This document shows, piece by piece, positions 12,453 to 39,100 of a DNA stretch of 64,000 nt. The stretch is from Ancylonema sp. (Eukaryota). Every line of letters begins with the position of its first letter. The stretch's first letter is position 1. The notes under the pieces are model-generated. The model ran no database searches. It was not told the DNA's origin and worked only from the letters and a program-made list of their open reading frames with translations. The position numbers were made by a program, and so were the translations under genes. The DNA is taken from assembly GCA_050230475.1 (NCBI GenBank), contig JBFLGF010000148.1, positions 1 through 64,000 on the forward strand. Reading direction: 5' to 3'.

Positions 12453-13560
12453 AGTCACTCTATCGTGACGCTACGACAACAAGATCTAGCAAATGACGTT
12501 GCAATCCTTGTGTACCAATAGCATCACTCCTAATTGAGAAGACCGCGGAAGGTGCTTTCGGACTACCCTTATAGCGAGACGTTCTAGAGTAACTGTTCCC
12601 CGGTGTACACACAAGGCTGGTTATATAGGTTGAAAGCCCGCGACACACCCGACGATGCCAAATACTACGACAGGACAACAGATGTGTGCACCGCAGGCGA
12701 GGATATCAATGTATTATTGTATATATGACACATAACAATGAAGGCGGAAACATAACGATTATCGGTGTTTATCGCAACGCAGCCGGAGAAACATCAGACG
12801 ATATTATTAGTCGAACAATCAAAATCCATAAACGAAGCTGAAGGGATCGAGATTATAATACGTACATGCACTACGTCACTCTATACCACTTCGTAACTTC
12901 TATCTCGCATATTTTTGGACCTTAACTAACTTCACCTGGAGTACGCGAATGCGATGTAGTTGTAACTCTGACACACGAGCCAGATTCGCTTCCTCTTTTA
13001 TCAGGAACAAACTCTGTCTGGAGGGAATTTTGCAAGGATGGAATGCAGCGAAACATGGGAGACGGGAGAGGATAGCCACCCGTATCCGACTTAAACGGAC
13101 GGAATGATAGTCAGGCATCGTGGCAAACTATGAACGAAGTTCGATCCATATCATGTAGTTTGTCGTATCGTCACACAATTGTCAAACCGTCAAATAACTC
13201 GAAGTAACGCAGGGACAAAAGTGACGCGTTACTTTCGGTTTTCAAATTTTCGGGTGTTCGTTATGTAGACAAAAAGTAACAATGCACAAAAGCATCGTGA
13301 ACACGGTAGAAAGTCATGCAAACAACGCGCTCTCGTTTTCCTCCCGAAAACTGACGGGGTTTTTGGCTCCCGTGAGTCACGCGGGTCCACGAAGAAAACC
13401 GAGTAACGAATATCCGAAAAGACCTACTCAAAACTGGAGTGCTGCCAACGATGCCCTTCGATTAATTATGGGGGTCTCCCGAACCAAAGTAGACGAATCC
13501 TCAATCCCATAAATTGAGCTCCGGAGCCGAACTCAAGAACACTAAGTATCACCCTAAGCT

Positions 13561-13608
13561 ACTAGTTGTTTGGGCCCGCCTTGCGCGTGGCGCAAGACCC
13601 GCTCTAGT
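13561..13608 (+). mobile_element. Helitron-like 3' terminus (hairpin + CTAG|T)
   Basis: CTTGCGC-gtg-GCGCAAG hairpin (13580-13596) lies 7 nt before CTAG (13604-13607), followed by T. The 5' end was not identified. Confidence 0.4.
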
Positions 13609-14187
13609 TTGTTATACAATAGAACCTCTATAAAACAACACTCTTTTAAAAAAATAACATCTCTTAAAGAAAATATAATTTATCCCCCCGAACGTTAGGG
13701 AGTAAAATTGTTCAGACTATCTAAATAAATGACCGGTTTTTTTGTGAATTATAAACATCTATATTTCAATATTTCAGATTACTGTACTGGACAAAAAAAA
13801 AACCCGGGTTTTAGAAGATAAATTAAATTCGACTAATGAACCACCAATTGACCCAACCGCGCACCCGATATAAAATTTCCCAATGTCTTGGAATACTTGG
13901 AATATGAAAAGGTGAATATAGTTGACTATAGTTGTATGATAAGGTGACTAAAATGATAGAGGTACCCACTTTCTACTTCAAAAAATGGATTTTGGACCCG
14001 ACCTCCCCTTTCCCCTCCCCTTAATTACTCTTCATCAATTCGTGGAATACTTATTACATTAGTTTCCTCACATAATCTATCGCAACCGTCTAAAATCAAT
14101 GATGTACACTTAAAATGCATGATCCATAGTCCTACCATATTATATTTTCATATGTTTTATATGTTTTTTCGACGAATCCAAGGTCGA

Positions 14188-14884
14188 CGAATCCTCAGTC
14201 CCATAAGCAATGCTCTAATGAATACGCAAGTCTCCCTTTTCCCGAAGTGGAAGGATCCACGGCAACGACTACCCCGTCCGCCAAAGGTTTCGCGGCGGGG
14301 ACGCAACAGCGGCGGGGAACGAGGTCCGAATGGAGTCCGACAAGAAAGTCGCTGGTGATTGAGGTAACGACACGCGGCCGCCTGAAGTGCGCCAATGGCG
14401 AACTCGTGATTCTGACTCAGTCAATTATTGGTTCTGAAAGTTTACATCTCCACCTGGCAAGCCACATGTCGTTTCCTAGTACTAACTGGCGTCCCGTCTC
14501 CACGTGGATCAGAGAGGATTACGGTCCCGTTCACACGCTTAAAAAGTTAAGCATATAGAAATTATAAAACTGTGTTTTACTGGACATCGTGACCTCAGAT
14601 GGCCTCAGATCGAACTGTCTTTTAGAATCTGTTCTGTTCCAGTAAGAACGAAGAAAGCCTAAACAAAGTGGCAGTGACCTCTTTCAGAACCAAGAGTTGA
14701 CTGAAAGAGCGAATCACGAGTTCGCCAATGGCACACTTCAGGCGGCCACGTGGACCTGGTTCCCCGCCGTTGTTGCGTCCCCGCCGCGAAACCTTCGGCG
14801 GACGGGGTAGTCGTTGCTGTGGGGTGCTTGGGAAAGGGAGACTTGCGTCTTCATGAGAGCATTGCTTATGGGACAGAGGATTCG
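14188..14884. repeat. Long inverted repeat (arms 14188-14440 and 14681-14884) immediately upstream of the LPLAT start codon
   Basis: The arms are reverse complements, e.g. CAACGACTACCCCGTCCGCC / GGCGGACGGGGTAGTCGTTG. The left arm has an extra ~40 bp; the spacer is 240 bp. Confidence 0.9.
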
Positions 14885-14925
14885 ACGAGGGAAAATATAG
14901 AAGCTGTGTTTCAGCTGGCGGGAAA

Positions 14926-17900
14926 ATGGTTACGTCAGAGGATGTCTTGGAATTTCTAGGAATATCTGCTGCCGTCGGCCAATTCCTGTTATTCTTTGTC
15001 TCAAGCATCCCCTGCTGCTGGCTTCATAGATTCATCCATGGCACAACCCTGCGACATACGTTCTCCGCAGCGAGTGGCGCGATTCTCTCATATTTGGCCT
15101 TTGGAGTGGGTGCAAATCTGCACTTTGCAGTGACCATTTTACTAGGCTACACCGCGATGCTCGTAGATAGGAAGAGGAGTGGGCTTATCACATTTACATT
15201 AACCATGGCATTCCTGATTGGATGGTAAGCTGACTGTCCCGCCATCAAATCTGAAGGCATTTTTCATATCAACTCGCCTAATTGACTGCTCATATAAAAT
15301 GTTGAATTCGAAAAATAATTGACCTTCTTTTTTGCGTTACCAGTCATTTGATTGTTACAGGTGCCTACAAGAGGTTTTTTATTGTCCAGGTGCCTTAGTA
15401 ACAGTGGACTTTGTTTTGTTGTCTGGCTGAAGAGACTTTGTAAATCTTGCATTTGAACGAGTATGATGTTGCATGGTGTATGTGTGAATTCGCCGACTAG
15501 TGGGAAAATATGCCAATGAGTTAGGAAAAAACATGCCTGTGAAAGTATTCGTTATATTTGATTAATGTTTTTAAACTCCTATTTAAACTTCTTCAATCCG
15601 TTTTTGATTTTGTAAGTATTTGTTCAACGTCTGTGTGTACGGGATGTGAGTTATACCTTCGAACGCTGTGTTCTGCCAAGGTCTTTATGTGTTTTATGTA
15701 GGAAAGATGAAGGCCTATGCAGTCATTGTGGTTTTCTTCGTGGCACAGCGATAAAGTGCCTGAGAAAAAAAAAAAACTCCCTATAGTCCCATTGGTTTTG
15801 AAGTATGCAACTTTGACAGGGGTATGTTGCTGAATTCCTGGCGATGCTATTTTCTTTTGGTCGCAGCCACGTTTGGTACATGAGCGGCAACGCATGGACA
15901 GACGGCGGCATCGACTTCACAGGTAAAACGGACTTGATCACATAATTAGAGTCACGTTGTACTTGTCACTGCAGGTCTTATAAATTCTGAAGTAATTCTG
16001 AAGTCATTCACTATTTGTAGCCTTTTGGTCTGCTTGTGGTCACAGAAGAGTATGTGAATGTTGTTCCCTCTGTGTTGTGCATGCAATTGAAGGTATTTCT
16101 GACTCATTACTAATCCGCCCGAATTTAACCTTGAATATCAGGAGCGCTGATGATTATCACGCTAAAGACGATCGGAGCTGCGTTTGACTACCAGGATGGC
16201 TTGCTGTCTGAGGCTGATCTCAAGGAAGCGCAGAAGCAGAACTTCATTTCTCGACTTCCCAGTATCCTGGAGTACATGGGATACTCCCTCAACTGCGGCA
16301 CACATTTTGCAGGCCCAGTGTATGGCATTCGTGCATACTTAGATTGGACAAGTAGAAAAGGGGTAAGTTTATCCGGAAAAGGTTATTGTCCAGGGTATTT
16401 TCGGGCATTTCTTTGTCAGTTGTTACAATAAACGGAGCAGTGGTGAAGGTTTAAGGTGCTATGCTTTCATACAGCCCCAGAAAGAATACCGCACTGTCTA
16501 TCTGTGCTATCTGTGCTGTCTATTTGAACCTGTAAATATGCGCACAAACTGGTAGTCTTCAGAGGCTATGTTGAAGTCAGGATGAACAATGCTCCTTCTC
16601 TGTAGCGTTTCTCCCGATCCGTAGTTTGCTGCAAACGTTGTTGCCAAGGGAAGGTTTTTGGACACTGGTGCAGGTCTGGAGTGACAAGCAGGAGCACCCT
16701 CCCCCCACGCCCTTCCCTGCCACAGGGCGAGCACTGGTGCAGGCTGTGATCTGCATGATATTGTGCATCAGAATTGTACCCCTCTGCCCCCTCACCATCT
16801 TCACGTCTTCGGAATTCCAGACTCTGCCAGCCTGGAGGTGCTGGGTTTACATGTACATAGCTTGTGTAGCTACCAGACTCAAGTATTACTTTATATGGAG
16901 CATAGCGGAGGCATCCATGGTCATGTCAGGCTTAGGGTTTAGTGGCTGGAAGAGCTCGGACACAGAGGGCAAGGAGGGAGGGAAGGTGGAGGCGAGTTGG
17001 GAACGGGCGAAAAACTGCAAAATATTGAATGTGGAGTTTGCAGACTCGGCTGTGAGGTTCCCTCTCAACTGGAATATTTCAGTCAGCAACTGGCTGCGTG
17101 TGTGTATCCTGCTCACCGCCTTCCACTTCCTTTATACCCTAAACAAAGAGCCCAATAACCAGACAACTTTGACTGGACATTTTGAAACTAATTTCCCCTG
17201 GCATATACATTCTGAATTCAATCAATCCTTTGCTTCAAATTGCGAGCATTTTTCGCACTGGTATCATCCACGTAGAGTGTGCAGATTGAGGGTCAAAGGT
17301 GGTCGTAAAAAGCGTTGTTGGTTATGACCTGTCAGCATTCCCTGTACCGCCTCCGCATAACCATGGATGTACCAAAGACTTTGATTGCTCTAGACTCGGA
17401 AGTGATTTTTGGTTCCTGGAATTTCTTAACCCTGAACTGGTTCTTCAGATGTGTACGAGAGATTGACTCCTCTGGGCAAGAAGGGAGGGTTCAAGGAGCT
17501 CATGGCCACCCAAATCACCTCTGCACTATGGCATGTAAGTTTGGCAGGACACTAATTATACACAGTTGTGTTTGATCATATCGGACATTCAAAGATATTG
17601 TTTCAATACTCCAAGGTGGGTAGGATATCATGACTTTAAGGGGGTTCAGGATTTCAAAACATCTTTGGCACCTACTTACGAACACATTCTTCAGCATGTT
17701 CAAAAGATCTCACTACTAGTCCTAAGGCATCCAGAGTGATCTCACACATCCGTCGTTGACATTTGTTTTCTGTGTGACAACTTTTCGTAGAAAGTCGGGA
17801 ATGGGGAGTGAGAGAAGGTGCACGTTTTTGGGCCAACAATAGAATGTGTATCGCATACTTCGAGGGCGAAATCGACTGGTGCTGAATCAACTCTGATCCG

Positions 17901-19223
17901 TTGTGTGTGTGTTTTTAGCGTGTCACCAGGGCCTCTACCCTGGATTTCTATTCATGTTTGTCGGCACAGGGCTCATGATGTTTGGATCCAGAGGTCAGTT
18001 GGGGGGGGACAAGTGGACGGTGTTGAGGATACTTTATGACCCCATTTTACAAGTCGAACAAGTGTAGTAAACTCTAATGTAAAGTCTTGCGTACCATGTT
18101 AACATTTTATGTTAGGAGGAATCGATGGATATTGTTGGGAGAGGCGAAGGCCCTTTTGGCCGGATGGAGAACGATATAGTTCTCCTGCCGTGTACCTGGC
18201 CAATTTCATTTTTCGTTTTTCTTTTTTTCCTGCACATGAAATGTCTACTTTGCTGTGATGACTACTCACTACACCACCTGTTGTTGTCCCAAGGTTTGAC
18301 TAAATGCCATGAGGACTTGCTGTGGCAGTTGACAAGAAGGTGAAGATTCTCTTCAGGGATCTGTACATGATATTTGAACCTGTTTCTCACTGATAAAAGG
18401 TATAGAAAGCTTGCATACGGAAAGCAACCAGAACCATTTAAGGGGCTGCGTATTGTGTGAATCCAACCTCTTTGAATGCGGCACCTGACTGCCTACCCTC
18501 GCTTCTTGGTGGCAGTCATCTACCGCGTCCAATCCGCGATCCCCCCCAAGCAGAAAGCAGTCCGGCTGTGTGCCAAGATCGCCCATGGCCTGTATGCCGC
18601 TTTCTGCAACAACTATGCAGCCACTGGGTTCATTGTAAGCCTGCATCCCATAGGCGGGTGGGGTACAGCCAAACTCGTGCAAAGGCAATCTCTGTACAGG
18701 CACATGCCTCACCTATGCATTAAAAGTTAGCAAACAGAAATCAGTCACCCTGAAAATTTCATCTTCTGTTATGGCATTCCCTCCATTAAAAACAATAAAA
18801 ATAGCGTCAAACTTGTGCCTTTTGAGAAGTTTGACTGCACACAGACTGTAAGCTGAGACATTCTGTTGAGGATGCTCTATTTTATGTGCCCCTGTTTAAT
18901 GAAAGAGCACCTTGTGCATGGTCTCTGCTGTTCATTTGTGGAGTACATAATTGGTCAGCAATGCACCGTTATCTTTATACATGTCATCCATGGCATTGCA
19001 TTTTCCACTCATGTATAAGGCCCTCGTCCTACAGGTTTTGTATACTCGGGATACCCTGATGGCATACAGAGGTGTATACTACCTAGGCACAATTGTTCCC
19101 GTCACCATCATCATCATTGGGGCTGTCTTCCCTCCCAAGAAAGCATCACGCAGAGCAAAGACAGAAGGAAGTTCGCCCGCGGCGGACCGGAGTGGGGAGA
19201 AAGAAATAAAGAAGGAGTTGTAG
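14926..19223 (+). CDS. LPCAT: MBOAT-family lysophospholipid acyltransferase (LPLAT/LPCAT); exons 14926-15224, 15867-15922, 16142-16362, 16674-17103, 17449-17534, 17930-17993, 18516-18634, 19035-19223
   Basis: Spliced translation contains CHVWYMSGNAWTDGGIDFTGALMIITLK, HFAGPVY, KYYFIWSIAEAS, WNISVSNWLRVYVYERL and the catalytic SALWHGLYPG, matching plant LPLAT1/2. All introns are GT-AG with consistent phases. Confidence 0.95.
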
Positions 19224-20204
19224 GGACGACGGAAACTTTAGGCTCAAAAGTCTGTTGGTCACCTAGATTGAGGCACTTTGTAGCTTTGTATTCGTTATAA
19301 TTTGTCTTTGTAGGTACGAATACTAAGATCAAATAAAAACTACTACTCTCAAGATCGAAAATATTCTTTCTCACATTCGTAATCCCACTGTTGTGACCCT
19401 CAGTTTTGAGTTGTCCCTCAATTAGTATTATTTTTTCATGTGTGAATGGAATCGTTTCACTTAAGGGTTTTCGCGAGTTTTTGATCTCAATCGGAAAATC
19501 CTGATTGTGGTTTCATTACTATCTTTGCTGAATGTGCTTCTCGCCATGTCACCAATGTCAAGCGGGAAGTTCTATGTACCTCAGCTCCAAGTTTGCTTGA
19601 ATAAGTTTCCGAGCAAAGCTTTTGAAATATTTATAATCGACCTTCAACGACAAGCTCACACTCCATCTATCCTTGGCTTGTTTTGGGCTCAAACATGGCT
19701 CCATTGTTCTCATTTCTTCGTGGCAGGTTGGATTCGTAGTTATGTAGTACCACATTTTGAGCAATCTGGGATATGACTGAAGATATTGCAACAATTCTGT
19801 ATAAGACTCATACAATACTGTTGTAATATCTTAAGTCATATCCCGTATCGCTCAATATGTGGTACTACATAACTAATAAATTTGACTCATATTATGAGTC
19901 AAATTTCTTGTACATGCATTATATGATAGGAGGTGCTTGTGGTATGAAGGAAATTATATTTGTACGCTAAGACACACACGTAGACGTCTCGACTTGTACA
20001 CCTCTACAGGTTCACATAAATATTGATAACATTTATTGTATTTTGTGATATTATTTAGAAGCCATGTTTCCCACGTAACGATGACGTGAGATCCCGTCAA
20101 GTGCCACAAAAACTATGGTCGTGGACTAGGATGTATAATATGTTTTCAATGTGTTTTTATATTTTTATATTTTTATATTTTTTTGATATTTTTATGTGTA
20201 TGTT

Positions 20205-20448
<244 letters not shown>

Positions 20449-21469
20449 GTGTTTTTTTGTTGTTTTTTATTTTTCTATTTTTATCGCATCATACCACGTC
20501 ACGCCACGGAGTCGGACTCATGAGTGACATTAGATGATGTCAAACTTGTGGCGTATGGTGCACATTGTGCAAGAAGTCGGTTTTGAACAAAATCAACCAT
20601 ATCTCCGCACTGCGGCATTTTTTGGTAAAAAGGTTTTTTGGCCTGTGGCCCCGCCCCGCAAATTCCGCCCCGCTTTTCGCCCCGAGCGAAATTGCCCCGG
20701 GCAAGAAATCTTTCACCCGGGGCAGGGCCTTCTGGGCCCAGAACCCGGACCCGGAGGCCAAAGGAGCCGGTTTTAGAGCGGTGGTAGACCAGATGGTAGT
20801 AGACCAGATGGTAGATTGGTGGTAGACCAGACTTGGCGGGTGGGGGGGGTGAGGCGGGTGGGGTTGGTGGGAGGGGTAGTCTAGATGTGGCGGGCGGGGG
20901 GGATGAAGGAAGTGAGGCGGATGGGGAGGGCGGCCAGGAATCTGAAGATGCTCAACACTGCCCTCGATGCGGAGTCAGCCAGCCATCAAGTGAATTTGAG
21001 CCGGGAATAGCCGTTTGTATTAGAAGAAGACAAAAGAAAGCACATGGCCGTGTGAGGGGGGAGGCATTAAGAAGAGCCCTACTTTGAGAGGAAAGTGGAA
21101 AAAAATGGTGCACAGGATGCGGGGCTTCCACCTAGAAAGCGTTTTTGATGGCGACAATAAGACATGTAGGATCAAGTTATAAAAAGTAAGATTGGGTAGG
21201 CAGGCGAAAAAAATAAACTCCTCCAAGGCCTGGTCTCCTCTAAACCAATTGCGCCCAGCTAGCCAGCAATAATCGGAGCCAGGACAAGAGCAACTGGACG
21301 CCAAGTGCTCCCGGAGCTGAATGGGCTGAGGACAAAGACGGTTGGCATTGCTCGGGATGCAAACGAGTACGCGGCATTTATAATGGTAGTGCGTTATGGC
21401 GTTATGCTTGTCAACAAAGTGAATATAGTGGATGAAACGGTTTTAGAGCCCGGGACCGGAATTGGGATC

Positions 21470-23240
21470 GGAGCTCATGTCTCATTAAAATTTTACAAAA
21501 AAACAAGAAAAAGTAGCGTGCTTATATCTATAGAACGTTGATTGCCAGGGGAAAAATCATATAGTGCGTGCATGATTTGTTGTTTTTTTTGTTTTGACAT
21601 GGGACATTCAATCGCGATAATTTTGCGTAGCATGTCAACATAAACAAATGTGGTATACCGTAGTGGGCACACTTCATGTTTCGTGCTATTCCAAATCGAA
21701 TAAACCAATCAATAATTCGTAAAAATTGTTTCGGAAATCCGGTACTTCCTATCAATTACTTCTAGATATTATTCCGGGATACCTGTATATCAAATAAAAA
21801 TAAAATAAAAAAATATAGTGAATGTCAATGATTTATAGCCAACCAGTATACCTTCTAAGGAATTAACACAAATGATTGATTTCGGGTTTGAATATTTACA
21901 TATAAATAATCAAGTATGCCCGGTACGGTGAACGACATGGAATACTGTTATCGAAATATTGATGATTGACAAACGGTGTTGGTTGTTCACGTTGTTTCAA
22001 GTGCCGTTCAACTTAGTTACATTCTCGGAAAATGTGAATCAAATTCAAACACAACACTCAGAGATAGTCTGATATTTTATGATTTCTATACAAAAAACAC
22101 TTTGATAGGCGGACATCATACATATTATAAGTTTTGTATTTGCGTAATATAGAATGATCATATGAGAACTTATTGTGACAATTTATTCGAGTCACGCACA
22201 ATTTATCGACAAATCACCAAATATTGTCATCAGTTTACGAACGATATTGGATACTCATGAAGATATCGAAAATTGTAGGATTGTTGTGGTATTTCAAATC
22301 TTGTTCAAATATGATCACTAGTAGAGCTCATATCATGCATGGATAACAAAACGAGTAATTCTAATTGAAGTGGATATTTCAAATGTAAAGCGCATTGTTT
22401 TTTTTAGAGTACGGACATCGCCTAAATGAGAACGAAGACGGAACATGTCCAAACCACTTTTAAAATAATAATAAAAAAAAACAAAAAAAAAACGACAAAA
22501 GACAGAAGGCAAGACTGTAGACATAAAATCGCAGTGAGTCCATGACGATTTACGCAAACTACATCCAAAATCACGTCCCGACACCAGTGTTGCAAAAAAA
22601 TGGGGATGCGACCGTCTACACCGGCTTGCATCCTCGACCGACTCGAACTACATCTTGGATGCTCGAGAGAACTCTCTCATATCCGTCGTTCATACATCGT
22701 ACAACACAACACGGATTCCAATTCGATGAATTCAGTTTGAAAGGTATTCAATCGACACCAACGATCGGAAGTTGTACACCACTTGTAACTTTAGTGTGTA
22801 CATTTTAAGATTCAAAACCAACAAACTCTTGGGGAGCCCAACCGAATGACCTGGGCTCCAAGCTCCGGAAGATCCGGGCTTAAATTCGGCGCCCAGAACC
22901 CGGAACCCGGAGGCCAAATCCCGGAGCTTGATTAAGAGCCCCGAGCCGAGTCCGGAACTTGGCTCGGAGCTCAAATCTTATGGTTTTTTTGACAAGAGAG
23001 GTGAAACAGTATCTACTAATAACGAACATTGATTGTCGGGGTTTTTTTTCATTAGAGTGCGTACATGTGGAATATAACATGTTGACATGGGGCATTCAAT
23101 CGCGATATATCCATTGAATTCCGCGTTGTATGTAAATAATAAACCAAAACGAGTATGCCGTACGGGGCAAACTTCATGGTTCACCCTTTTACCAAACGTA
23201 TACATTCATTAATGATGTGTAAAACTTAATCCGGGTACTT
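21470..23240. repeat. Diverged ~280-bp direct repeat (21470-21760 and 22960-23240), probably decayed DNA-transposon sequence
   Basis: Shared blocks such as TTGACATGGGrCATTCAATCGCGATA, GGGCAmACTTCATG and GGAGCTCA...TCttA. Confidence 0.55.
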
Positions 23241-24097
23241 GCAATTGTTACCTAGAATATGATAAGTTTCATTTAAAAAAATATATTTATTCACCGGAAG
23301 TTATCTTTTTCGCCAAACAAGCATTTTGCACGTAGTAAAATCTAATGTCCACCGAGAAACATATTTTTTCACCGCAATATGCATTTTTACCCAATCTGGC
23401 ATTGTAAACTTACATACATTTTTGTGTCGAACGTGCATTTCATAACAAAATACGAATTTTCACCAAACCATGCATTCTTTACTACAATTACGTTCTACTT
23501 TATTTTACCGAAACTTGTTTTGTTTGGGTAAGCAAAAAAGAGAATGCAAACATATCGTCGTCGCGATAGGAATCGGTTGCTTATAGCGGATACGCCCCCG
23601 TTATAGCCGATTGGTTAGTGGCTCTCCGCCTTAGCCGGGCGTTATTTATGTGTTCTTAGGAGTTACATGTTCACCGTGTACCACGGGCCCTTGCAAGTGA
23701 GATCACGATTGCTGGCCGTGGCCTCTGATTGGCTTAGGGAGATTTCATCGTAAACGTTACGCTCTTAGAGTTGCCGCTGATTTCGCACGTGCGGGGGTGC
23801 CTCACCCACTGCACTAAATGAGGACCAGGAGTAGCGTTGTACCCTAACTTTTCTGATAACTTCCCGGAACTTCTATCATCGCCTCGCACGTGTCTTGTAT
23901 TAGTCTGTGTATTGATACCGTTGCGTTGAGTTGTGTTTGGAAGTTGGCGGGAACCCATTAGCCGAACAGATCGCCAGCTCACGGCGTATTTGGGCGACCA
24001 AGGTCTCCATTGCCTTGGATGGTTTATCGGAAGAGTTGCATCTATCAGTTGGGTCTGACTAAGCCCGACCCCCACCCGCTGCGCACATGACTGCTGA

Positions 24098-25700
24098 ATG
24101 TCATGGCGACGTAGTGGAAGTGGCCGTCTAGGTCGTAGTTTATCAGACAACACTCTCGCGTCACGACCCGCAGGCTCGCGGTCCGGCTCTCCAGCTGACG
24201 AGACAAAAGAGACCACATCACCGCTAGCTCCGCGGGAGGTTTTGCTCAACCGACAGATTCTAGAAGACGACTCTGAAGACATGGGCGACTCTATCGCTCA
24301 CTACAACGGGGAGATAGGCTCCCACCAAACAAACTTCTTCATTGATGCCCGCGGCCTCTATTACAAGGTCGCGATGCGTCCGGCCCGCATCAAGAAGGGC
24401 TATGGAGAGATATAATTCCTCCTATATGACTTGGCTCCTTTCCTCGGGCGGGATGCCAGGAAAGTTCTGACCAGCCACGTCACCGAAAGGACTGCGGTCT
24501 TTCTAGCCGGCCATGCGGATCACCAGCGGCAAGCAGATAGAGTTGCCGCCCGCAGAGCCTAGACGACCTCCCGACCCAGCACATCCTCCTCAGCCTCCGC
24601 TAGTCGATGAACCGGACGACATCGAATCTTTCTTCGTTGCCATCCGGCTGCGGTTCATCAGCAACGTTACCGGAGCCTTCAACAGGCTGCGTAACTTCTA
24701 GGCGGACCCACACGACTCCGTCCACATGATCTTCACGAAGATCGATAAAGATGCCACTGCCTGTGAGCAGTGTGGACGGACCATCCCGAGGGAGGGGGCG
24801 TTGCGGTTCTACAACGCTCTACCTAGAGTTGACAAGATCGAGATGGACGCTGACTACAGAGCTGAGGAGGCGAGACGGCTGGCTGCAGGCTTGCGAGCCA
24901 TGGGCCGCGATAAGATTCGCACCATCGCTGCTGCAGCGGAGAATACGCTGCACGCCAGGACGGTTGAGTTCCGTAACTTCGGGTTAGATCCGGCCAACAA
25001 CAACGTCACCAACCTGATTTTGCAGCCCGTGGCGAGGAGGGTGCAGATATTGCAAGGGAACTCAGGCCACCAGTAGCAACAACAGCGGTCATCTAGGAGG
25101 CAGAACTCTGCTCCCACTTGCTCCAACCTACCCTCAGTCTCTACTCCATCTCCTACTCCTGCCTACTCTGGCCGCCACGACCGTGCCTGCCACACGTGCG
25201 GCCAGAGAGGTCATTTGATGCGACATTGGCCGTCCAAGCCGACATCATCGGGAGCTGGCCAATCGCAGGCAATTGCTAGCAGAGGTGGCCAGCAGCAATG
25301 TCAGACACAGTAGCGTCCTTCTACATCTGCTGCCTCGGGAGCTGCAAGCACACCTCCATCTGCACCGTTGTAAAGGTGGAACCTCACGGATGCAGATCGG
25401 ACGAAGCGTGTCAAGTGCACTTTTTTCCACACGATGCACCACACCGAAGCGGAGTGCAAGCAAAAGCAAGCTGGATACTCTCCACCTTCCTCCCATGCCA
25501 CCCAACATGCTCTGCAAGCTCAACAAGGCACCATGATGCAGCACATCGACGAGCTGCACAAGCCTGAGCCTCGCTACCTCAACCACGGCTATGTGGTGGA
25601 GGATGACCCCTTTCTACAAGGGTGCCGACTGCCTCTCAAGTCGGCATTGAAGTTGCAAGCAGCAACACATGACCTGAATCTGAGGAGATCTTCCAGATAA
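24098..25700 (+). pseudogene. Degenerate gag of family 3
   Basis: ORF fragments broken by stops and frameshifts. Zinc knuckle CHTCGQRGHLMRHW (~25188-25229) and a second HHTEAEC knuckle remnant. Confidence 0.7.
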
Positions 25701-25859
25701 GGTGCAAGGGAGGCTGCCGGCAAGAAAGTAGCCTGGGATCCGGTGACGGAGGAGCCGATCAGATATGAAGAGTCCGGACCACTCTTGTCCGAGTCTGCTT
25801 CCAAAATGGGAGAGCGACTGGCCACGCAGCCAACTCCTTCCATCTCTACTGATCCGAGC

Positions 25860-26423
25860 AAGTTGCGTAAGCGAAGGGATGCAATATTCACAGAATTGCA
25901 AGGATTCAGATAACACAGAAGATTGTAGGAAGAGATTTCTTAACAGCACAATCTGACAGCGGAAGTTGGCAGATATGAAAGTACAAATGGTCTTTTATCA
26001 AAAAATTGTTGCGCGGTGCTAACGGGCATAGTTAACTAGAGTTAAGCTATCGAAGATAACGACAGGCTGGCTTCTATAACATTACAATTAATATCGGCGC
26101 TCCGATGAAAACGGCGCGAGATATTCCTCTAGTTCTACGGCTGGATTTAATCGCGGGGATTATTGACAAGTCGAAAGTGACTTGTGATTTTAACAAAATC
26201 GACACGCAGCTATTTGTTGAAGACTCCTGGATTCTAGACTTCGGAAAATACGCCACGCGTTATTTTCGAGTCGTACAAAATTTCGTACTTCACTATTTTT
26301 CTTGTAAAGTACTAGTTTAGAAAATCGTTATATCGAACACTCTCGTTATACACAATATTAATCTATAGGGGTTTCTAATCACTCTAGAGGGGTTTCGCCT
26401 TAGCGATCTCTAGCGTCATGACC
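25860..26423 (-). mobile_element. Fragment of a family 1 A repeat, located where the PR-RT-RH region of family 3 is missing
   Basis: Nearly identical to 47225-47789. Ends in the reverse complement of TGTCATGACGCTAGAGATCG. Confidence 0.85.
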
Positions 26424-26430
26424 CCCTTTC

Positions 26431-27879
26431 CCACCAGCAGGCGACATCTGGGGTGACCAACCGGTTCTGGACCTATTGAAGCACCATCGCCATGCTGATG
26501 GCGCCTCTGCCAGGGATAAGGACCGCGTCTACAGACGGGCCGTGGGGTACAGGTGGCTGGGGGGGCACGTCTACAAAGTCTTCCCGGGGGGGGTGCTACT
26601 GATCGTGCCTCCCCCTGCTGAGCGTCTCTCCCTCATCAAGCGAGTCCACACTGAGATGGGCCACTTTGGGGAGCTACGCGTCCACAAGTTCCTCCAGAAG
26701 GCCTACTAGTGGGAGGGGATGGGCGCAGACGTGAAAGGGGTGCTGAGGGGGTGCTAGTCCTGTGCGCGTGCTCAGGCAGCCTTCAAGGACCCCCAGCAGC
26801 AGTTTCAACCCCTTCCCATCCGAGGTCTGGGGTACCGCTGGGGCATCGACTTCGCTGGCCCCTTTCCCACTACCAGCCGTGGCAACCGCTACGTGTTGGT
26901 GATGACCGAGCACTTCTCCAAGTGGGTAGAGCTGGTGCCCTGCGTCGACAAGTCCGCAGACACCGTCGCCTACGCCTTCCTTATCTCTGTGCTGAGCAGG
27001 TTTGGAGCCCCAGCTGAGGTGGTGTCAGACCAGGGGTCTGAGTTCAGGGGCGCCTTCAAGTCCCTTCTCAACCAGTTTGGCATCGACCACGGGCTGGCCA
27101 GCCGCGAGCACCCGCAAGCCGATGGGCTGGCTGAGCGCCTGGTCCAGACGATGAAGCAGAGCCTGCGCAAGTCCGTGCTGGAGCGCTGCGCTGCAGACTA
27201 GGACCTGGTGCTGCCCTACGTTGCCATGGGCTACAGAATGACTCAGCAGCGTGCCCTATGGTACAGCCCATATTTCATCCTCTACGGCCGTCATCCCATC
27301 TTCCGTACCAAGATCCAGGATCTGGAGGACCAGCAGTTGCCTGACCTTGACGACCCCGAGGCCCTCCGCCTCTTTCTGGACGCCCGGGGCCACATCTTCC
27401 AGAACGTGATGCCGCTGGCCCTCCGCAACCTGGCCACAGCGCAACACCGCGACACAGTGCGCTTCATGAAGGTTCGGGGCACACCTTGGGACGCCCCAAA
27501 GACTTATGTGGAGCCTGGCGACTTCGTGCTGGTGAAACGGCCTACTGAGGGGACTCTTGACGTGCCCAGCCACCCTCACATTCTGCAAGTTGTGCGAAAG
27601 AAGAGCTCAAGGGTGGTGGTTCTACAGGGGCAGAATGCAGCGCGCATAGAGGAGCAGATCAATAATGTGGCTCCCTGTTCCCTTCCCATCCTTAACATAA
27701 ATATCTACCCGGAGCGCTACTTCAGCGGGGATCTGGTTCACTGCCGCGAGTGTGGTAGTCGTGAGAAAGAGGAGTCAATTGTGCTCTGTGACCAGTGCCA
27801 AGATGGCTTTCATATTCGGTGTTTGACCCCGCCTTTGCCTCATATTCCCCTAGGATCTTGGGTATGCCCATATCACTAA
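26431..27879 (+). pseudogene. Ty3/gypsy DDE integrase (HHCC + rve core) with C-terminal PHD finger; 3 in-frame TAG stops
   Basis: One reading frame carries HTEMGHFG...C*SC, WGIDFAGPFP, VVSDQGSEF, HPQADGLAERLVQT, SPYFILYGRHP, and the PHD CRECGSREKEESIVLCDQCQDGFHIRCLTPPLPHIPLGSWVCPYH. Stops at 26707, 26755 and 27199. Confidence 0.93.
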
Positions 27880-29224
27880 GCTGCTCTTTGTTAGGGAGGT
27901 GTGTTGGACTTGGGGGGGCTTTCTTTCTGTATTGTCTTTCAAGTTGTCAACCTCTGACTTCGGTTCTCAGCCGAGAACTTGGGGGGGGAGTAAAATAAAA
28001 TTGTATGTTTGTAGTCTCGCTAGGCATGTGAGTTGTGGTTGTGTGTGATGCTATGTGTGTTGACATGCAAGTAGTTAGCGCTTGCTTGCTATGTTGTTCG
28101 GAACGTGTTCGGATCTCTATCCACACGTGTCCGCAAGTGTCCTTAGCATGTTTGAGGTTGCCCTACAAGCCGCACGTGTAGTGACGTCATCGATCTCTAT
28201 AGGTACGTCAGCTGTCGTAGCGGTAGGAATCGGTTGCTTATAGCGGATACGCCCCCGTTATAGACGATTGGTTAGTGGCTCTCCGCCTTAGCCGGGCGTT
28301 ACTTATGTGTTATTAGGAGTTACATGTTCACCGTGTACCACGGGCCTGCAAGTCACATCACGATTGCTGGCCGTGGCCTCTGATTGGTTTAGGGTGATTT
28401 CATCGTAAACGTTACGCTCTTAGAGTTGCCGCTGATTTCGCACGTTGCGGGGGTGCCTCACCCACTGCACTAGAATAGGAGTAGCGTTGTACCCTAACTT
28501 TTCTGATAACTTCCCGGAACTTCTATCATCGCCTCGCACGTGTCTTGCATTGCTCTGTCTGTGTATTGATACCGTTGCGTTGAGTAGTGCTTAGAGGTTG
28601 GCAGGAACACATTAGCCGAACAGATCGCTAGCTCACGGCGCATCTGGGCGACCAAGGTCTCCATTGCCTTGGATAGTTTATAAGTAAAATCAAATTGTAT
28701 GTTTGTAGTCTCGCTAGGCATGTGAGTTGTGGTTGTGTGTGATGCTATGTGTGTTGTGATGCAAGTAGTTAGCGCTTGCTTGCTATGTTGTTCGGAACGT
28801 GTTCGGATCACTATCCGCACGTGTCCGCATGTGTCCTTAGCATGTTTGAGGTTGCCTTACTAGTCGCACGTGTAGTGACGTCATCGATCTCTATAGGTAC
28901 GTCAATATAAAAATACTATCACAATAATTTGAACAATCATTCACCAAAACATGCATTCTTCACCAAAACATGTATTTTGAAATAATATATACGATTGGTG
29001 GGTATAGACCGCCCACCAAACGGATTTTTGATTGTTTTTGTGTTTTTTAATTTGTTTGGTCGCCTCGGGCTACTTTAATTGAGACGGAATTAAGTAATTT
29101 TAGGAAATAGTATTTGCTCTCGCAAGAGGACTTTGGACGAAATACAACGCATACTCCTTTTCCCGATCGTTATTCCTTTCTACTCGGGGAAGCAACCCGC
29201 CACTGTATTCAAGGATGAGATAAG

Positions 29225-31579: not shown

Positions 31580-32563
31580 TGGTTTGGTGCCCTGGAGGAT
31601 TTCCGCCAGGAAAATGATGAGTCGGCCGTCCATCATGTGACCCAGGTGGGAGGCACACATGGGATCTGTGATGCAACCAGGGGCTGTGTAGCCCACAAGT
31701 CGTCCCAGGGCTTGCTCGATCTCGAATGGAGAAGGTGGCACGTACTTCAAAGATGGTGCATCGAACAGCATCCCGATGCCGGGTCGTCCATCCGATCGAA
31801 GCGTATTATCGCATGTCTAGAGGTAAGGACTCGGAGTGGGAAACACAGCCAAGCGGTTGCCCATGCGGTTGAGTTTGTGATTCACCAACTCGGGAAGTGT
31901 CATGATTTGTGCAGTGTGCCCTGGTTGCAGAAGGTTTTGCAGCGGCTCCCGGGTCTGCCTGTTGGGTTGCGCAAGTTCCAGTTCGCGTGGTGTAATGCAG
32001 TTGGTCCACACCTTGGTTGGGCGATGGACGTGGCCTTTGAACTGGAGTGGTTGGAGCTCTGCAGCGTTACCAAAGAATGCATGCGCCAGGTGGTACAGGT
32101 CGTCCACCCAAGGAGGGTACTCGGGTGTGCCGATGTGGGTGTAGAAAATATGCACCGGGAAGAATTGTGCGAGCCGTGCGCTGTAGTGCATCCATTTGAT
32201 GACAGCGAGAAGTGGAGCGAGGCGATGGTCTTGACCGCCACGGAGAGGGTTGCAAGTGCGTTCCACTTCCGTGTGATAGTTACCACCGACCACGTCGAAA
32301 GGGCCTTTCCGACGGAAGAGTGCGTCCATCTGCTCCGTTGTCGTGTCGGTGACGCTGGTAGACAGGATTTCATCGCAATGTTCGATCGCAGAGTTCGGCA
32401 GCTGGTTTGGAAAGCGGAGTTGAAGTTGTCGCAGCTTTTGGCGGTAGCGGTTTTTGGTGTGGATGCAGTCCGTCTCCGGCGTGACGTGGGAAACGATGGA
32501 GCCTCCCTCGAGACAAATCTCCACAATCTCTAGGTTGCCGAAAGGAATGTAGATGTGCAGGCC
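31580..32563 (-). pseudogene. C5-cytosine-methyltransferase-fold domain lacking catalytic residues (family 1)
   Basis: GLHIYIPFGNL (motif I position), QLQLRFPNQLPNSA, GPFDVVGGNYHTE (motif IV position), HRPTKVWTN (VIII) and PSPFEIEQALG...HLGHMMD (IX/X). One in-frame stop at ~31817. Confidence 0.7.
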
Positions 32564-33145
32564 ACGAGCCTCAGAAGTTGGTTGCGTGGAGATGATGGTG
32601 CGGGGAAGTTCGTATGCACCTTAAAATGTAGGACCACACCATTTGAGTGATGGTGGGAGTGGTTGGTAGTCATACTGCATTTTGAGATGTGCCTTTCGTA
32701 TATGAATTCGGCCATTCCGCCTGATGGTTTGGTAGTGAGCGTCTCCGTAATGCAGGATAGTTGGCGCGTAGATGGAATCTGCCAACTTGCTGCGATTTGT
32801 TCCGGAGAAGGCCTTCGGGATGGCACCCATGTTGAGAAGGTGTGCCATAGCCGGTCGAACGAATGGTTGGCGGAAGGTAAAATCTGACACACTAGTGTTT
32901 GTGCGTGCCAGTCGTTGAGCAAACATCGGTTTTGTCTCTGAGGTCGCGCAGGTGTGCGTAGGCACCGAGTGGTTTGTTCTTCACCGCTTCCTTCTCCATT
33001 TGACAATGGATTGTCCCTGGGTCCTCCGCCGTGGGTAGGTGGGATGAAGAGCTGGGAGTTGTAGGTGTAGACCGCCGACTATCCATCAGGTAGGTCTCTA
33101 CTCGATGTGTTGCCGCGACTGGTGATGCTCACTGCATGCGCTGCC

Positions 33146-36100
33146 GGTTAGAATATTTTGGATAGCCATATGTTATGCTTGCTAGTCCAGTTGTAACCGG
33201 TTACTCTAACCGGGAGCAATATTCTAGATGTGCCTGTATGCGGGGCCCCCCAAGTTTGTGCCCGGGCACCTGACATGTTTCCGACGCTTAGAGACGTTAT
33301 TTGTTTGAAGCGTCGTGATTGGCTTGGTTAGTCGTGTCAGAAATGTCCGGGCATGTGCCGTTGACATGTAGAAGAGCTGTCAGTCAATGATGGCCGACGG
33401 TCAATTGTGCCGACCGTCGGCACAACAATCTGTAAAGCGCATCGGGTATTACCATCCCCCCCGATGCAATCACAATAACGTCCACACACGCAACTCCTGT
33501 CTTGATCATCAGTGATAGATACTTTTGCGTACGGTTCGTTTTGTCGCCCACCTAATTATTCCGGCACGTCTAATCACTCAAAAGCAGGTTATGGGCCCAC
33601 GTGCGGTCTAGTTCAAACCGTGTTGGTTAAAAACTAAAGGCTCCATGCGATTTCGCTGCGGTAATCTCTGTGAACGGTATATTCTGCCTGTGAGCGCAGC
33701 AAATATATTCGTAGTTGTTAAGGTCTGCTGCACGTAGTAATTTTGACATTGCGCTGCAAGTTTTCGAGCTGAGTGCTGCAGTGCAGGAATTGCACTAAGA
33801 ACTCGAGCTGAGCGAGAAATTTTGTGAAATCCTACACAATAGCTGCCACAATGACGGATAGGTCGCAAATCCCTCAGTTAACTGGAGCTGATTATATAGG
33901 ATGGGCCTTCAAGGTCAAGTATGGGCTGGCGGACAAGAAACTGCATCGTTTGGTGATGGATTGGGACAGCTTGCCGGCGAAAGTGTCGCCCAGACGTTAT
34001 CCTTCCATGACACCACACCTGACAACTGACACCTGACAACGAGCTGCAATTTGCCGCCAGGGGGGTCGACGTGGAGGTCGAAATATTGGTCAGACAGCAG
34101 CAGATTTCCCAGCAGCTGCTGGAGCGGGAGAAAGGGGATGAAGACAATCTGGCTGCTCTGTCATACATTGTGAAGCACCTAGGTCCTTCGGAGCTGACGC
34201 ACGTCACGGACTGCGGGATGCCTTGAGGACATTCTACCAGGTGCAGGGTGCGATCGAGATCGCAAATACGGAAGCACTGCTGAGCGGATCATTCAGACAG
34301 AGGCGGAGGACCTCAACGTGTACGTCAAGCGTCTGCAGCAGCTGCACCAGGACCTGAAAAATCTGGGGGCGCCAGTATCTCCGACGAAGCAGGCGATCAA
34401 CCTGCTGAACTCTTTAAACACGCATTACAGCCCAATGGTCTCAACGCTGATGCCATGGTCCGAGTCGTCGCCACACCTCTTCACTATTCCCCACATCGTG
34501 AGTGCGCTGCTGCGCGACGACGTGAGGAAGGAGCTGAGAGCGGAAAAGGACGGGGGGCGCTGCCAGGAGGTCACCAAGCGCATTATGGTGGGGGGGACCT
34601 GGGGGGGGAAACGGAGCTGGAAACAGCAGCAGATCTGGAGGTGCGACTGGAGCTGGTCGCAGAGACGTTGCAGGCGTCGAATGCTTCGGTTGCCACAAAT
34701 TCGGGCACATCAGAGCGAACTGCCCTTCACCAGCTCTTGGCGGAGGCCATGCCGGAGCGTGGAAATGTCACAGGTGCCACCAGGCAGGCGGCAGGCCACC
34801 GAGCTGCTCAGTGCCCTGCGACATCGCCAGCAGCTGTGCGCACGCTACTCAGGGAAGTTCAGGGGGGAGGCAGAAGTGCAGATATTGCAACATTGTAGGG
34901 CATACGATTGAACAATGTAGAAAACGTACGTCTGACATGGCTCTAATGAACCCAGAAGCTGCTCGAAGGGCTGATGCACAAGCTAGACTTGCTCGCTTTG
35001 CTGACAAACCTTTCCGACGCTAATGTGGATTATTTAGCTTTCGGTGCTTTCTCGTTCGATGTTGCTCGGGCATTGTCTGCTGGTTCTCACACAGACTCCT
35101 TGATCCTGAATTCAAGTGCTACAGACCACATTTTCACGGAACGTGAACCATGTTGTGGAGTCCACACCTACCCTGAGCACGCAGAAGGCCTACATCACCA
35201 CTGCCGACGGCTCGTCACACAAGGTGGAGGGCACTGGTTTCGTGCACATCCGAGTGAGGACCTGGCGACGCATTTTTTATGCAGCCACTCAGCTCGATCC
35301 ACGTCCCTACCTTTGCCTGCACCCTCGTGTCGACATCGTGCCTCGTCAAAAGAGGTGGGCTGAGCTTCTACAGCTGCCCCACGGGTCCAATAATTAAACA
35401 AAGGGAAATGTGAAATAATGGGCTGATGTGCTGCAGCAGCCTAGTGGTCTGACGTCGCTTGCTGCCACCATCGTCATGCCTGGATCTCATGATACGAGAG
35501 CAAATTTGTCCACAGGCATGGTCTGGCATCACAAACTGGGTCACCCCAGTTCTGTTCTGATGTGATGTGATGTCAGATTTTGTTGTCAGACGTGGTGACA
35601 TCCCAGAGTTAAGTCTCAGGGAGAATTAACTGAAGTAAAGGGGATGTCAGGTTTGTTGTCAGGGGAAGATGATTCAGCTCAGTCATGCTAAGGTCTCAGT
35701 GAGGATCTGGGGACATGCCCCAAGATGGGTCGCATCCACGGATCTCATTGGACCACTGTCTGTCAGGTCTGCTAACGGAGGATTTACATATGCTCAGAAA
35801 GGGATTGAGGTATCCACACGTCTGTCATTTGTCAGTTTGCTAAAAACAAAGGATGAAGCACTGAACCGAGCAAAAGTCACTATACAATTGCTCGAGGTCC
35901 AGTCAGGGTTGCCACTACAGTCTATACGGACAGACAAGGGTGGGGAGTATGTGTCTCAGGACTGGATAAACTACTGTGGGGGGAAGGGTATTGACAAGCA
36001 AACCACAGAAGCATATAGTCCTGAACAAAACGGAATCTGTGAAAGACTGAATAGAACATTGACCGAAAAAATGCGATGCATATTAATCTGGTCAGGTCTA

Positions 36101-39100
36101 CCGAAGTCGTATTGGGATGTGGCATTATTACATGCAAAACTGGCTAAGGAACAGAACTCCCACTGTCGCTTTCTGGCAGAATCCCAATTGAAGTCTGGGA
36201 GGGAAAAACATGAAAATGAACAAAAGTCAAATTTTGGGTGTCTGGTTCAATACTTGAAGGTTGGGGGGGAAAAGAACAGTCAAGGGGACAAGTTTGCCCC
36301 TCGCACTTGCTTTGGTGTGTTTTGGGGATGGCTGCGGGGAGTGCAGGCTACAACGTCTTCGACCCCCATAGGGTGGGGGTGATATCACGGCATGGACGTG
36401 GCGGTTTCTTCGAGGAGGTGCCCGGGGTACCCGAAAGCTCATGCGGGGGAGAGGCTCCCCAGGTTTTAGGAGGCAGCAGAAAAACACTTTTTCTACCTTT
36501 TCCCCGACCCTCAAGATGAACCAGCTGCAGCAGTTGTGCCAGCAGCAGCAGTCCACCCCAACATGCCCAGCAGCAGCAGTCCACCCCAACATGCCAGCAG
36601 TTCTGCAGCCGATGCCAGCAGTTTTGCAGCCAATCCCAGCACCAGCAGAAGCAGCAGTCCCTGAGCCAGCAGCTGCCATCGACTATCCGCTGCCATCGAC
36701 TATCCGCACGACAAGCTGCTGAGGTCCCTAACGCCACGATTGAGTTGTCCGACAGTCAGTCAGGGATCAACAACGCAAGAGGTGGAGATGCAGGGGAGGA
36801 GGAGGTGCAAGGAGGGGGTGCAAACCCAGGAGTGGGGGAGCCCCGCCCTTGGGGAGCCAGGCAGCGTAGCTGATCGGGTGATGGCCAGAAGGCGAGCCAA
36901 CTTTGCCGAGTATGGGGATCTCGTGATGTGATGGGGAGGAGTTCGATGACGCAGCACACGCCAACTACTCAGCGACTGAGTGGGAGCCCAGCAGTTTCTA
37001 CACTGGCTTCAACGGTCTTGTAGATCCGGGCTACGCATGCGTAGCATCTAAGAGCAACTCCTCCGAGCCACTCACCCTCAACCATGCGATGATGAGACCA
37101 GACTGGGACCAGTGGGACAGGGCCATTGTGGAAGAGCTCGCTGCCACGTTCAACTCCTTTGAGGTGTGTGTGCTTCCTCCAGGTAAAAAGGCTGTGGGGT
37201 GCAGATATGTTTTTAAGGTCAAAACAACACCACAGGGGGATATAGAAAGATATAAAGTCAGACTGGTCGCACAGGGATTCTTACAGCAAGAGGGTATTGA
37301 CTATAATGAAGTATTTGCACCAGTAATCGACAGTACATCTATCACTCTACTCCTCTCTATAGCCAACCAATATGACTGGGAACCGGAACAGATGGACGTA
37401 ATCACAGCGTTCCTGCATGGACGTCTGGAAGAAGAAGTTTACATGAAAATACCACCACGGATGCATATCAATGGGGGTGCTGAGGGAAAGGTCTTACGAC
37501 TGAAGGGAGCTTTATACGGTCTAAATCAGAGTAGCCACGTGTGGCAAGAGATGTTCAGAAAGTTTATGATATCTGAAGGGTTTACACAGTGCGTAATGGA
37601 CACATGTATATATATGAGGGGGGAAGCAGACAGCAGAATCATACTGGGCATACATGTAGATGATCAGGTGATCACAGGTCCTAACGCAATGGTCGTCAAA
37701 ACTTGACATGAAGATATGGGTAAAAAGTTCAAAGTCAAGGATCTGGGTCCCCTAACCCATATCCTGGGGGTGGAAGTGAAGAGGGATAGACAGAGAAGAC
37801 TGCTCACACTGGGACAGTCAGGAGTCTTAAGGGGAGTACTCGAACGTTATGGGATGCATGAGTGTAATCCAACCAAACTCCCCCTCGCCCCTGGAACTCA
37901 ATTTACACAAAATGATGAACCAACTCTTTCCCCTACCCCTGAAGAAATAACAGACTTTCGAGGGAAAGTGGGATCTCTCATATATGCCATGAAACAAACC
38001 AGACTGGACATCGGGTATGCACTTGGGGTACTGGCAAAACACCTGGGAAATCTTGGGGTCGCACACATAAGGGCGTTACATCAACTATTCAGATACCTTA
38101 AAGGGACTGTGAACCACGGACTGACGTTTGTGGGTAAGGACATATTTGAAGTAAAGGGTTACTGCGATGCATCATGGAACAGTTGCAGCATGACAGGCAA
38201 GTCAGTCACAGGATGGGTAACCACGGTTGGGGGGACAGCACTGAGTTGGAAGTCGCAGAAGCAGTCCATTGTTGCACAGAGCACTGCTGAGGCTGAATAT
38301 ATCGCTGCCTGTAGTGTGTCTAAAGAATGCTGTTATCTAAAGTCTCTCTTGAAAGAACTCAATTCCCAAACCAAATCACAATCCACACTGACTCAACCTC
38401 AGTCTCCATGATCCAGAATCCTGCAACGACAGAAAGCAAAACACTTTAATGTGGTATATCACTGGGTACGGGAATGCCACAGCACGGGGAGACTAATATG
38501 TGTATCTTGCAGGCGCCAATCAACCAGGATATGCTAACTAAAGCTCTTCCCCAAGTTTTAGTGGACAGACACAGCAAAAGTCTAGGTTGGACGGTTATAC
38601 TGAACTGGGGGTGTCAGTAGTTTTCTTTTATTTTTATGATCGAAGGTTTCGAATGCCATGCATGTTGGCAGGGGGTGTGTTGTTATGTTTCTTTTCAGGC
38701 AGAAGTAATGGGGAGGTACACCAACTTCAGCTCATCCAGCTAAGTCACATCTTACCTTAATACCTTGAAAAGACACTTGAAAACGCTTAAACGTTTAAGG
38801 ACACTTTAAAATCAGAAAGTGTGAATCTGCTCAACTTTAAACTTGTTCTGAATTTTCGTATGTATGTCCTAATCATGTTCAAAACTTGTGTCAAAAGTTG
38901 GTGCTGATAGGACTGGTAATTTTGAAGTTATGTTTTGAGATTTTTCTGACTGGAAAAGTTTCAGAATCGTGAAGTTGAAAAAGTTAAAAAATCAAAAATA
39001 TATTTTCATAAGTTTTTTTGTTTTTCGCCTAACTTGTGGTATTTGATTGTATGTTCAGGGCTTCGGCCTGAAAAACGACTAAGGATCTGGAGCGATCGAC

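Follow-up and report, generated by a model that had tools for sequence, protein, structure and literature searches.

Split repeats and an LTR-internal palindrome in an algal Ty3/gypsy clade suggest integration through an internal cut of the cDNA

A stretch of 64,000 nucleotides (nt) from Ancylonema sp. (contig JBFLGF010000148.1 of assembly GCA_050230475.1, positions 1 to 64,000; here called the window, to which all coordinates refer) was analysed, and the element at 23556-28904 on its plus strand is a dead copy of a Ty3/gypsy retrotransposon clade with split repeats. The repeats stand in the order A1-internal-polypurine tract (PPT)-B1-GC-A2-B2, with an exact target duplication of 4 base pairs (bp) on both sides. 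It is probable that this old clade, found in green algae and other streptophytes, has wholly replaced the processing of complementary DNA (cDNA) ends: its integrase, with D-34-E spacing, would serve as a nuclease for a palindrome inside the long terminal repeat (LTR), and every insertion would be a circular permutation of the cDNA, dependent on the joining of the cDNA ends. If so, this would be the first DDE retroelement to cut an internal LTR-LTR-like junction as its normal route, and its DIRS layout would have arisen by convergence.

In textbook LTR elements a linear cDNA with trimmed ends is integrated, and the cutting of a circle junction is regarded as a side path. Routine use of the internal cut, as this clade appears to make, would mean a DDE integrase that makes double-strand cuts at a specific site, with the cDNA ends uncoupled from the att sites. 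Abundant as they are in this host, such elements should be overlooked or mislabelled by LTR finders that need paired TG...CA LTRs, and DIRS identity would not be deducible from split repeats alone. The 10-bp palindrome, GACAGCTGTC, offers a simple substrate for testing in vitro.

Split repeats and the palindrome across loci

Out of 546 confirmed metagenome stretches the best 80 were fetched using the integrase, along with seven genome-bin contigs, giving 87 loci. One large repeat family accounts for 46 of these, which shared flanks reduce to 36 distinct insertions: 17 end in PPT-B-NN-A-B, 16 in PPT-B-flank and two in PPT-B-NN-A followed by other sequence, and one is cut off. The split layout sought in collected copies was thus recovered in 17 of 36 insertions; it marks the whole clade and is not a by-product. 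Complete A-internal-PPT-B-A-B elements of the large family number five (L014, L029, L031, L053 and L074), with duplications that are exact in two (GGTC and ACCT) and one transition off in the other three; the layout was also seen in a further copy (L082). Across complete or solo units the 4-bp duplication was exact in 6/11 and one transition off in 3/11, and its sequence varies (ATAT, GGTC, ACCT, TACA, TGTT and TCGA). Inserted copies run from the palindrome's TG to its CA, between 4-bp duplications.

Within the window, all four PPT-B ends carry the layout. Besides the element itself, the original prediction had named three further examples, and each shows the PPT-B-NN-A-B end, while a matching A1 was found only for the one at 45849-62824 (target duplication unclear, inside a TG repeat). 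The example at 42495-63525 has no A1; in that at 5865-8435 A1 is diverged (72% over 161 nt) and a target duplication is lacking.

The CA-NN-TG site lies inside the copied LTR, as had been proposed, and is conserved across families. Outside the large family, GACAGCTGTC follows 3' of the PPT in 16 of 41 loci whose repeats are otherwise unrelated (in one case as GGCAGCTGCC); three more end at the palindrome's left half and 13 have fewer than 600 nt after the integrase. The two middle bases in the large family are GC, AC, GT, AT or TC, and we infer that these variants are mostly those expected from methyl-cytosine decay of CAGCTG. No PPT-A or B-primer-site copy was found among the copies examined, and the PPT adjoins B in every PPT-bearing family. 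The A end is the precise terminus of two insertions (L026/L027 and L065), as expected if joining had failed or a linear end had been captured.

A single-repeat form, A-internal-PPT-B, is about as common as the two-repeat form. Where the left end of a PPT-B-flank element could be seen, in L024, L061 and L046, the copy is plain A-internal-B, with a duplication that is exact in L024 (TACA) and L061 (TGTT), from a second family, and imperfect in L046; two further left ends (L051, a reverse copy, and window position 12452) have no B ahead of A. There was no age difference between A-internal-B and B-A-B copies (mean distance 0.103 vs 0.109, p 0.28), and the form labels required 8 changes on the tree, compared to 11 when shuffled. 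As single- and two-repeat copies are intermixed on the tree and alike in age, both forms would come from the same parents. The age test does not distinguish direct insertion of the A-internal-B copies from later B-B recombination.

Some loci showed further peculiarities. At L046:11690-11700 the A-internal-B copy has four extra bases between its CA end and the duplication, beginning like an uncut site, and at L006:1805-1929 the CA end of B is fused directly to an inverted piece of A, like a product of autointegration or of insertion into another copy's repeat. The circular contigs L039, L079 and L081 were not taken as circles, since collapsed repeats look identical. Seven contigs (L081-L087) carrying these eukaryotic retrotransposons are filed in prokaryote genome bins, presumably through binning contamination, and a search of five genomes behind them returned no contigs other than two that were already known.

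Predicted cDNA ends and the A/B joint

The bases directly 3' of A1 pair with a stretch inside A, as a self-primer would. For the element at 23556-28904 this duplex (23845-23859/24024-24038) extends over 15 nt and was matched by 0/200 shuffles; in the large family the result was 0/200 for L014 and L046 and 1-2/200 for L029, L053 and L074, and in the second window family 2/200, or 18/200 with another copy's A. In the third window family its own A1 pairs over 15 nt, as judged by eye. When nine further loci were scanned unguided, 4/9 beat all 40 shuffles. In these five loci of the large family TATAAAA or a variant of it lies approximately 30 nt upstream of the self-primer, a clear TATAAAA being present in L014, L029, L053 and L046. 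Priming by a tRNA at TGGTTTAT was set aside, as the internal self-primer pairs with these same bases and TGG is missing at this place in other families. With the PPT at the start of B and the self-primer binding site at the end of A, the LTR that is copied would be B-GC-A, in line with the original prediction of a B-NN-A repeat. Because the primer site makes the A end a terminus of the minus strand, B2 cannot be templated from RNA past the primer.

The A/B joint was compared among 17 insertions and takes seven forms, with the start of B intact in 16/17: the A core is followed by nothing (7), AT (5), A, T, ATT or ATC, or there is a small deletion. The primer site begins with AATT, and most of the added bases equal its prefix; the commonest form may also be read as a 2-nt microhomology. 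In the element at 23556-28904 the joint consists of TTAT from the primer site and one A; the predicted order of repeats and the ATAT duplication stand, while the AG placed as a linker before B2 does not, there being one extra A at 28682 and AG being the start of B. Joints of the second window family are exact in 3/4. Among 16 elements, B2 was nearer to its own B1 (0.095) than to the B1 of others (0.126; permutation p 1e-4), the B2 copies did not form a distinct lineage in the B alignment, and the commonest joint forms occur in both subgroups of that alignment. The ragged joint, together with the likeness of B2 to its own B1, argues that B2 is the left end of the cDNA, rejoined in every cycle.

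Weighing the route of integration

We favour, with fair rather than high confidence, a route in which the integrase would take the 5'-LTR site first and the joining of the cDNA ends would precede or follow strand transfer. A TATA box in A and a self-primer some 30 nt downstream would allow priming of the Tf1 type and give a linear cDNA, B-GC-A...B-GC-A. Instead of trimming the ends of this molecule, the DDE integrase would cut the palindrome inside the 5' LTR; a staggered CA^GC-TG cut of both strands would leave 2-nt 5' overhangs as after 3' processing, and strand transfer could proceed normally. Joining of the two natural cDNA ends would then give A-internal-PPT-B-A-B. The A/B joint would be made anew in each cycle by end-joining, through host non-homologous end-joining or a template jump of the reverse transcriptase (RT), either before insertion, in a 2-LTR circle with the integrase already on one site, or after it, in repair of a chromosomal break. 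The bias to the 5' site might come about because the 5' LTR would be double-stranded after about 0.5 kb of synthesis and the 3' LTR after about 9 kb. The A-internal-B form would arise by cutting of a one-LTR intermediate or by later B-B recombination, and is predicted to be a dead end. That retroviral integrases can cut palindromic LTR-LTR circle junctions is described in the abstracts of PMC1180852 and PMC4372172.

Several points weigh against this route. The model as a whole was drawn from sequence, and the explanation offered for the 5'-site bias is conjecture. The mirror test described below comprises only seven elements, and only three single-repeat elements have a visible left end; in the large family the left end is out of sight for 15 of 16 PPT-B-flank copies, and mirror forms could hide among the other 13 PPT-B ends there. 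The ratio of PPT-B-flank to B-A-B ends (16:17) is that expected of a symmetric circle. The self-primer was not significant in the third window family (13/200 shuffles using its A2) or in 5/9 of the further loci, and nine loci with more than 600 nt after the integrase show no palindrome following the PPT. The copies are 5-15% decayed, and subsequent mutation could account for some of the variety of joints.

The nearest alternative, that of the original prediction, is that ligation turns the cDNA into a free 2-LTR circle, in which the integrase then cuts either of two equal internal sites. It would yield the same layout and the same ragged joint, the near 1:1 ratio of 16 PPT-B-flank to 17 PPT-B-A-B ends agrees with it, and the circle-junction cutting known for retroviral integrases, from the same abstracts of PMC4372172 and PMC1180852, provides a precedent. 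It is nonetheless unlikely, as a mirror layout (A-B-A-internal-PPT-B) would be expected in half of the insertions and was seen in 0/7 complete two-repeat elements (p = 0.5^7, approximately 0.008 if the two were equal), L024, L061 and L046 begin with a single A, L051 and the copy at 12452 have no B before A, and recombination between A repeats should not erase all mirror copies while B-A-B persists. The fresh-looking A/B joint supports the prediction; the free circle as proposed is not supported, and the single-repeat form had not been foreseen.

Improbable too is a reverse transcription like that of PAT and Ngaro, in which the RNA would extend into B2, template switches at the B-A junction would produce a linear TG...CA cDNA and the joint would be inherited. 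The layout equals that of split-repeat DIRS elements, ligation would be unnecessary and no mirror form would be produced. However, the minus strand would end at the A end, beyond which B2 is not templatable, the joint varies between close copies with its commonest forms in both B subgroups, and the PPT at the start of B is left without an explanation.

Integration by a tyrosine recombinase acting in trans, with the integrase as a passenger, is very improbable. Split repeats are otherwise tied to tyrosine-recombinase elements, and the site, a palindrome with a short core, would suit such an enzyme, but varied 4-bp duplications and CA ends, which are the marks of DDE integrases, fit DDE integration. 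Nor was a recombinase found in any relative examined. A protein search for longer relatives returned 135, and PF00589 is absent from the listed domains of the best 120 of these 135, from the 150 longest frames of the window, and from 50 frames of eight relatives and the window (top five families per protein). Of the five complete elements of the large family, the two scanned, L014 and L029, encode a DNA methyltransferase (DNMT), RT and RNase H (RH), L014 also having integrase (IN) and PHD matches, and neither has a tyrosine recombinase match. The expectation that full-length relatives would encode a Ty3-type RT/RH/IN and no tyrosine recombinase was borne out.

The relatives themselves are consistent in structure. 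The best 76 (28-53% identity) mostly have the order RT-RH-IN-PHD, many with PF00145, and include proteins of Klebsormidium, Pleodorina, Chlamydomonas eustigma, Tetrabaena and Pseudoscourfieldia; complete relatives have the Ty3-type order RT-RH-DDE integrase-PHD, and among solved relatives Ty3 is the closest to an intact pol (E 7e-100). A tree of RT-RH was built from relatives, the element at 23556-28904 having no RT, and contained no DIRS or REXdb references; in it 63 relatives group on one side of a branch and 37 other Ty3/gypsy matches on the other (FastTree, Shimodaira-Hasegawa support 0.995). The spacing from the second D to the E is 34 in 71/71 parsed clade proteins (of 77) and 35 in 17/17 others, and the catalytic D..E is kept in the integrases of the clade. 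A DNMT domain is present in L014, L029, L081 and L004, and the corresponding region is deleted in the element. A collection of viral sequences gave 0 relatives among 21 pattern matches.

That the layout arose secondarily, when ordinary A-B LTR elements inserted in nested or tandem fashion, or that it reflects a misassembly, is scarcely credible: solo A-B units (46457-47789) with TG...CA ends and a 4-bp duplication do look like ordinary solo LTRs and nested insertions abound in the window, but the absence of PPT-A and B-primer-site copies and the constant PPT-B order noted above speak against it, unrelated repeat families and hosts share the layout, and independent contigs span the junctions.

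The element, its neighbours and known systems

The features of the element at 23556-28904 are listed in Table 1.

Table 1. Positions of features in and beside the element, in coordinates of the window
Feature	Position	Strand	Basis
Left target-site duplication, ATAT	23552..23555	+	sequence
A1 repeat, promoter-bearing part of LTR	23556..24027	+	92% to A2
Putative TATA-like box, ~30 nt 5' of self-primer	23814..23821	+	sequence
Predicted self-primer, transcript 5' end	23845..23859	+	15-nt duplex with 24024-24038
Primer-binding site, complementary to self-primer	24024..24038	+	
Possible broken gag-like frames with degenerate zinc knuckle	24098..25700	+	motif seen
Foreign fragment, start of second family's A repeat, reversed	25860..26422	-	82-93% identity
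Integrase (HHCC, rve core with D-34-E) with fused PHD finger	26422..27879	+	profile matches
Polypurine tract, G8	27981..27988	+	directly adjoins B1
B1 repeat, start of copied LTR, ends ACGTCA	27989..28210	+	96% to B2
Intact internal att site, ACGTCA-GC-TGTCGT, core palindrome CAGCTG	28205..28218	.	B1/A2 boundary sequence
A2 repeat, ends with 4 nt of primer-binding-site copy	28213..28681	+	92% to A1
A/B joint, TTAT, one extra A and AGT; probable junction of two cDNA ends	28678..28685	+	
B2 repeat, ends at CA of cut att site	28683..28904	+	96% to B1
Right target-site duplication, ATAT	28905..28908	+	sequence

A1 starts with the right half of a cut att site, its TG decayed to CG; the primer-binding site begins within this repeat and takes up its last 4 nt. 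Family variants at 23819, 23820 and 23824 bring the TATA-like box closer to TATA. The predicted gag is represented by the degenerate zinc knuckle only, the frames at 24098..25700 having no Pfam match and no tblastn match to relatives. Protease, RT and RH are absent from the element, and the site of the deletion is the position of the foreign fragment, which is 82-93% identical to 7128-7652, 11900-12451, 45216-45767 and 47226-47787. The rve and PHD matches span 26758-27876 in a single frame that is interrupted by three TAG stops.

Contigs of sequencing run X1, obtained independently of the assembly, cross from the element into either flank at flank depth (114 and 140), and the interior of the element reached summed depths of 8,000-27,000, summed contig depth not being taken as copy number; run X1 may be the source of the window. 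A contig of run X4, which is from another study, spans the B1/A2 boundary. In run X1 the second family's A repeat (25860-26422) had a summed depth of approximately 10,000 x flank depth and 92 loose ends, with low agreement (0.36), at its TG end; this is a very abundant family, inserting by its A start, its depth giving no copy number.

The other split-repeat families of the window are non-autonomous (45849-62824; 30383-33146/39759-42495, minus strand; and 42500-45015). Two of the window's families besides that of the element have protease and DNMT-like frames, with no RT or integrase within the window, and both carry a diverged Dnmt3-like domain; diverged cytosine-methyltransferase-like frames lie at 59821-60879, 31595-32659 (minus strand) and 43548-44041, and the catalytic Pro-Cys is lost in 59896-61128. 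A solo A-B unit at 46457-47789 (minus strand), which resembles an ordinary solo LTR, has the exact 4-bp duplication TCGA, and its empty site is visible at 62354-62357. Two A starts stand head to head 8 nt apart (12452-12473), the one at 12452 on the minus strand and the one at 12461 on the plus strand. Nested in the split-repeat families are two Ty1/copia copies (33147-39758 and 51150-57754), 91% alike and with ordinary paired LTRs. The window also holds a (TA)121 array and pieces of host genes, AN1 zinc-finger and MBOAT (1300-2725, 16135-17324 and 20139-20446); the MBOAT piece is 33-49% identical to sequences of streptophyte algae, moss and seed plants, and the matches of this one gene indicate that the host is a streptophyte.

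The clade has features of both Ty3/gypsy and DIRS elements. A Ty3-like RT within RT-RH-IN (in complete relatives), a DDE integrase, CA ends and a short duplication place it in Ty3/gypsy; ordinary members of that group have TG...CA LTR ends at the PPT and primer site, whereas here TG and CA lie inside the copied LTR. The split order A...B-A-B is that of PAT, TOC1 and Ngaro, which are tyrosine-recombinase retroelements. The present clade differs from these in having no recombinase, and in having a DDE integrase, 4-bp duplications, a PPT and a Ty3-type RT. SymbioDIRS-Dnmt3 has the same repeat order according to part of PMC5890265.

The original prediction had left room for the layout being new, but it has already been stated for KnitGypsy-Dnmt3 of Klebsormidium nitens, to which the Fig. 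4c legend of de Mendoza et al. 2018 (PMC5890265) gives A-coding-B-A-B (DIRS-type) repeats and Gypsy domains, as in the clade of the element at 23556-28904. What appears to be new are the fixed LTR ends, the palindrome inside the LTR, the ragged, recopied joint and the D-34-E clade. In the passages covered of the main text of PMC5890265, target duplications, priming, att site and mechanism of KnitGypsy-Dnmt3 are not mentioned, with 0 matches for 'circular' or 'target site'. A K. nitens protein (P0050; DNMT-RT-RH-IN) is 46% identical to the element's integrase, has D-34-E and falls inside the 63-sequence clade; we infer from organism and domains that it is KnitGypsy-Dnmt3. The element differs from it in having a PHD finger and in having lost the region where the DNMT would lie. 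In a literature search that leaves out most subscription papers and theses, neither the name KnitGypsy-Dnmt3 in other papers nor any paper on the integration mechanism was found.

Two groups recorded in REXdb were considered and set aside on the parts of their descriptions consulted. Chlamyvir has a 5-bp duplication, a tRNA primer site and a chromodomain, as against 4 bp, a self-primer and PHD in the element. Phygy, with a 4-bp NCGN duplication and a tRNA-Trp site, agrees in duplication length, but only 1/6 exact duplications is NCGN and a self-primer is present here. Nearer in domain content are REM1 and Gypsy-7a_cRei, Chlamydomonas Gypsy elements with a PHD finger in Gag-Pol (portions of Craig et al., PMC9940879); they too are green-algal Gypsy elements with PHD, and volvocine and other chlorophyte proteins fall in the element's clade. 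The Gypsy-7a_cRei legend speaks of 'LTR subparts' and, in the part covered, does not state a split layout.

In priming, the clade resembles Tf1, whose primer-binding site is complementary to the 5' end of its own transcript (passages of PMC4600332), and sushi elements, in that a primer-binding site complementary to the predicted transcript 5' end follows directly after the repeat (PMC4600332 and PMC6317226, in part). Tf1-type elements have plain LTR pairs and chromodomains, whereas here the att site would lie inside U3 and the accessory domain is PHD; in the RT tree the clade is separate from the chromodomain-bearing matches. In cutting, the resemblance is to foamy virus and HIV-1, where a DDE integrase converts a palindromic CA..TG junction into processed ends (abstracts of PMC1180852 and PMC4372172). 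In those viruses the palindrome is formed by ligated cDNA ends and its cutting is a side path that restores a normal provirus; in the present clade it is encoded in the LTR, and the product would be permuted.

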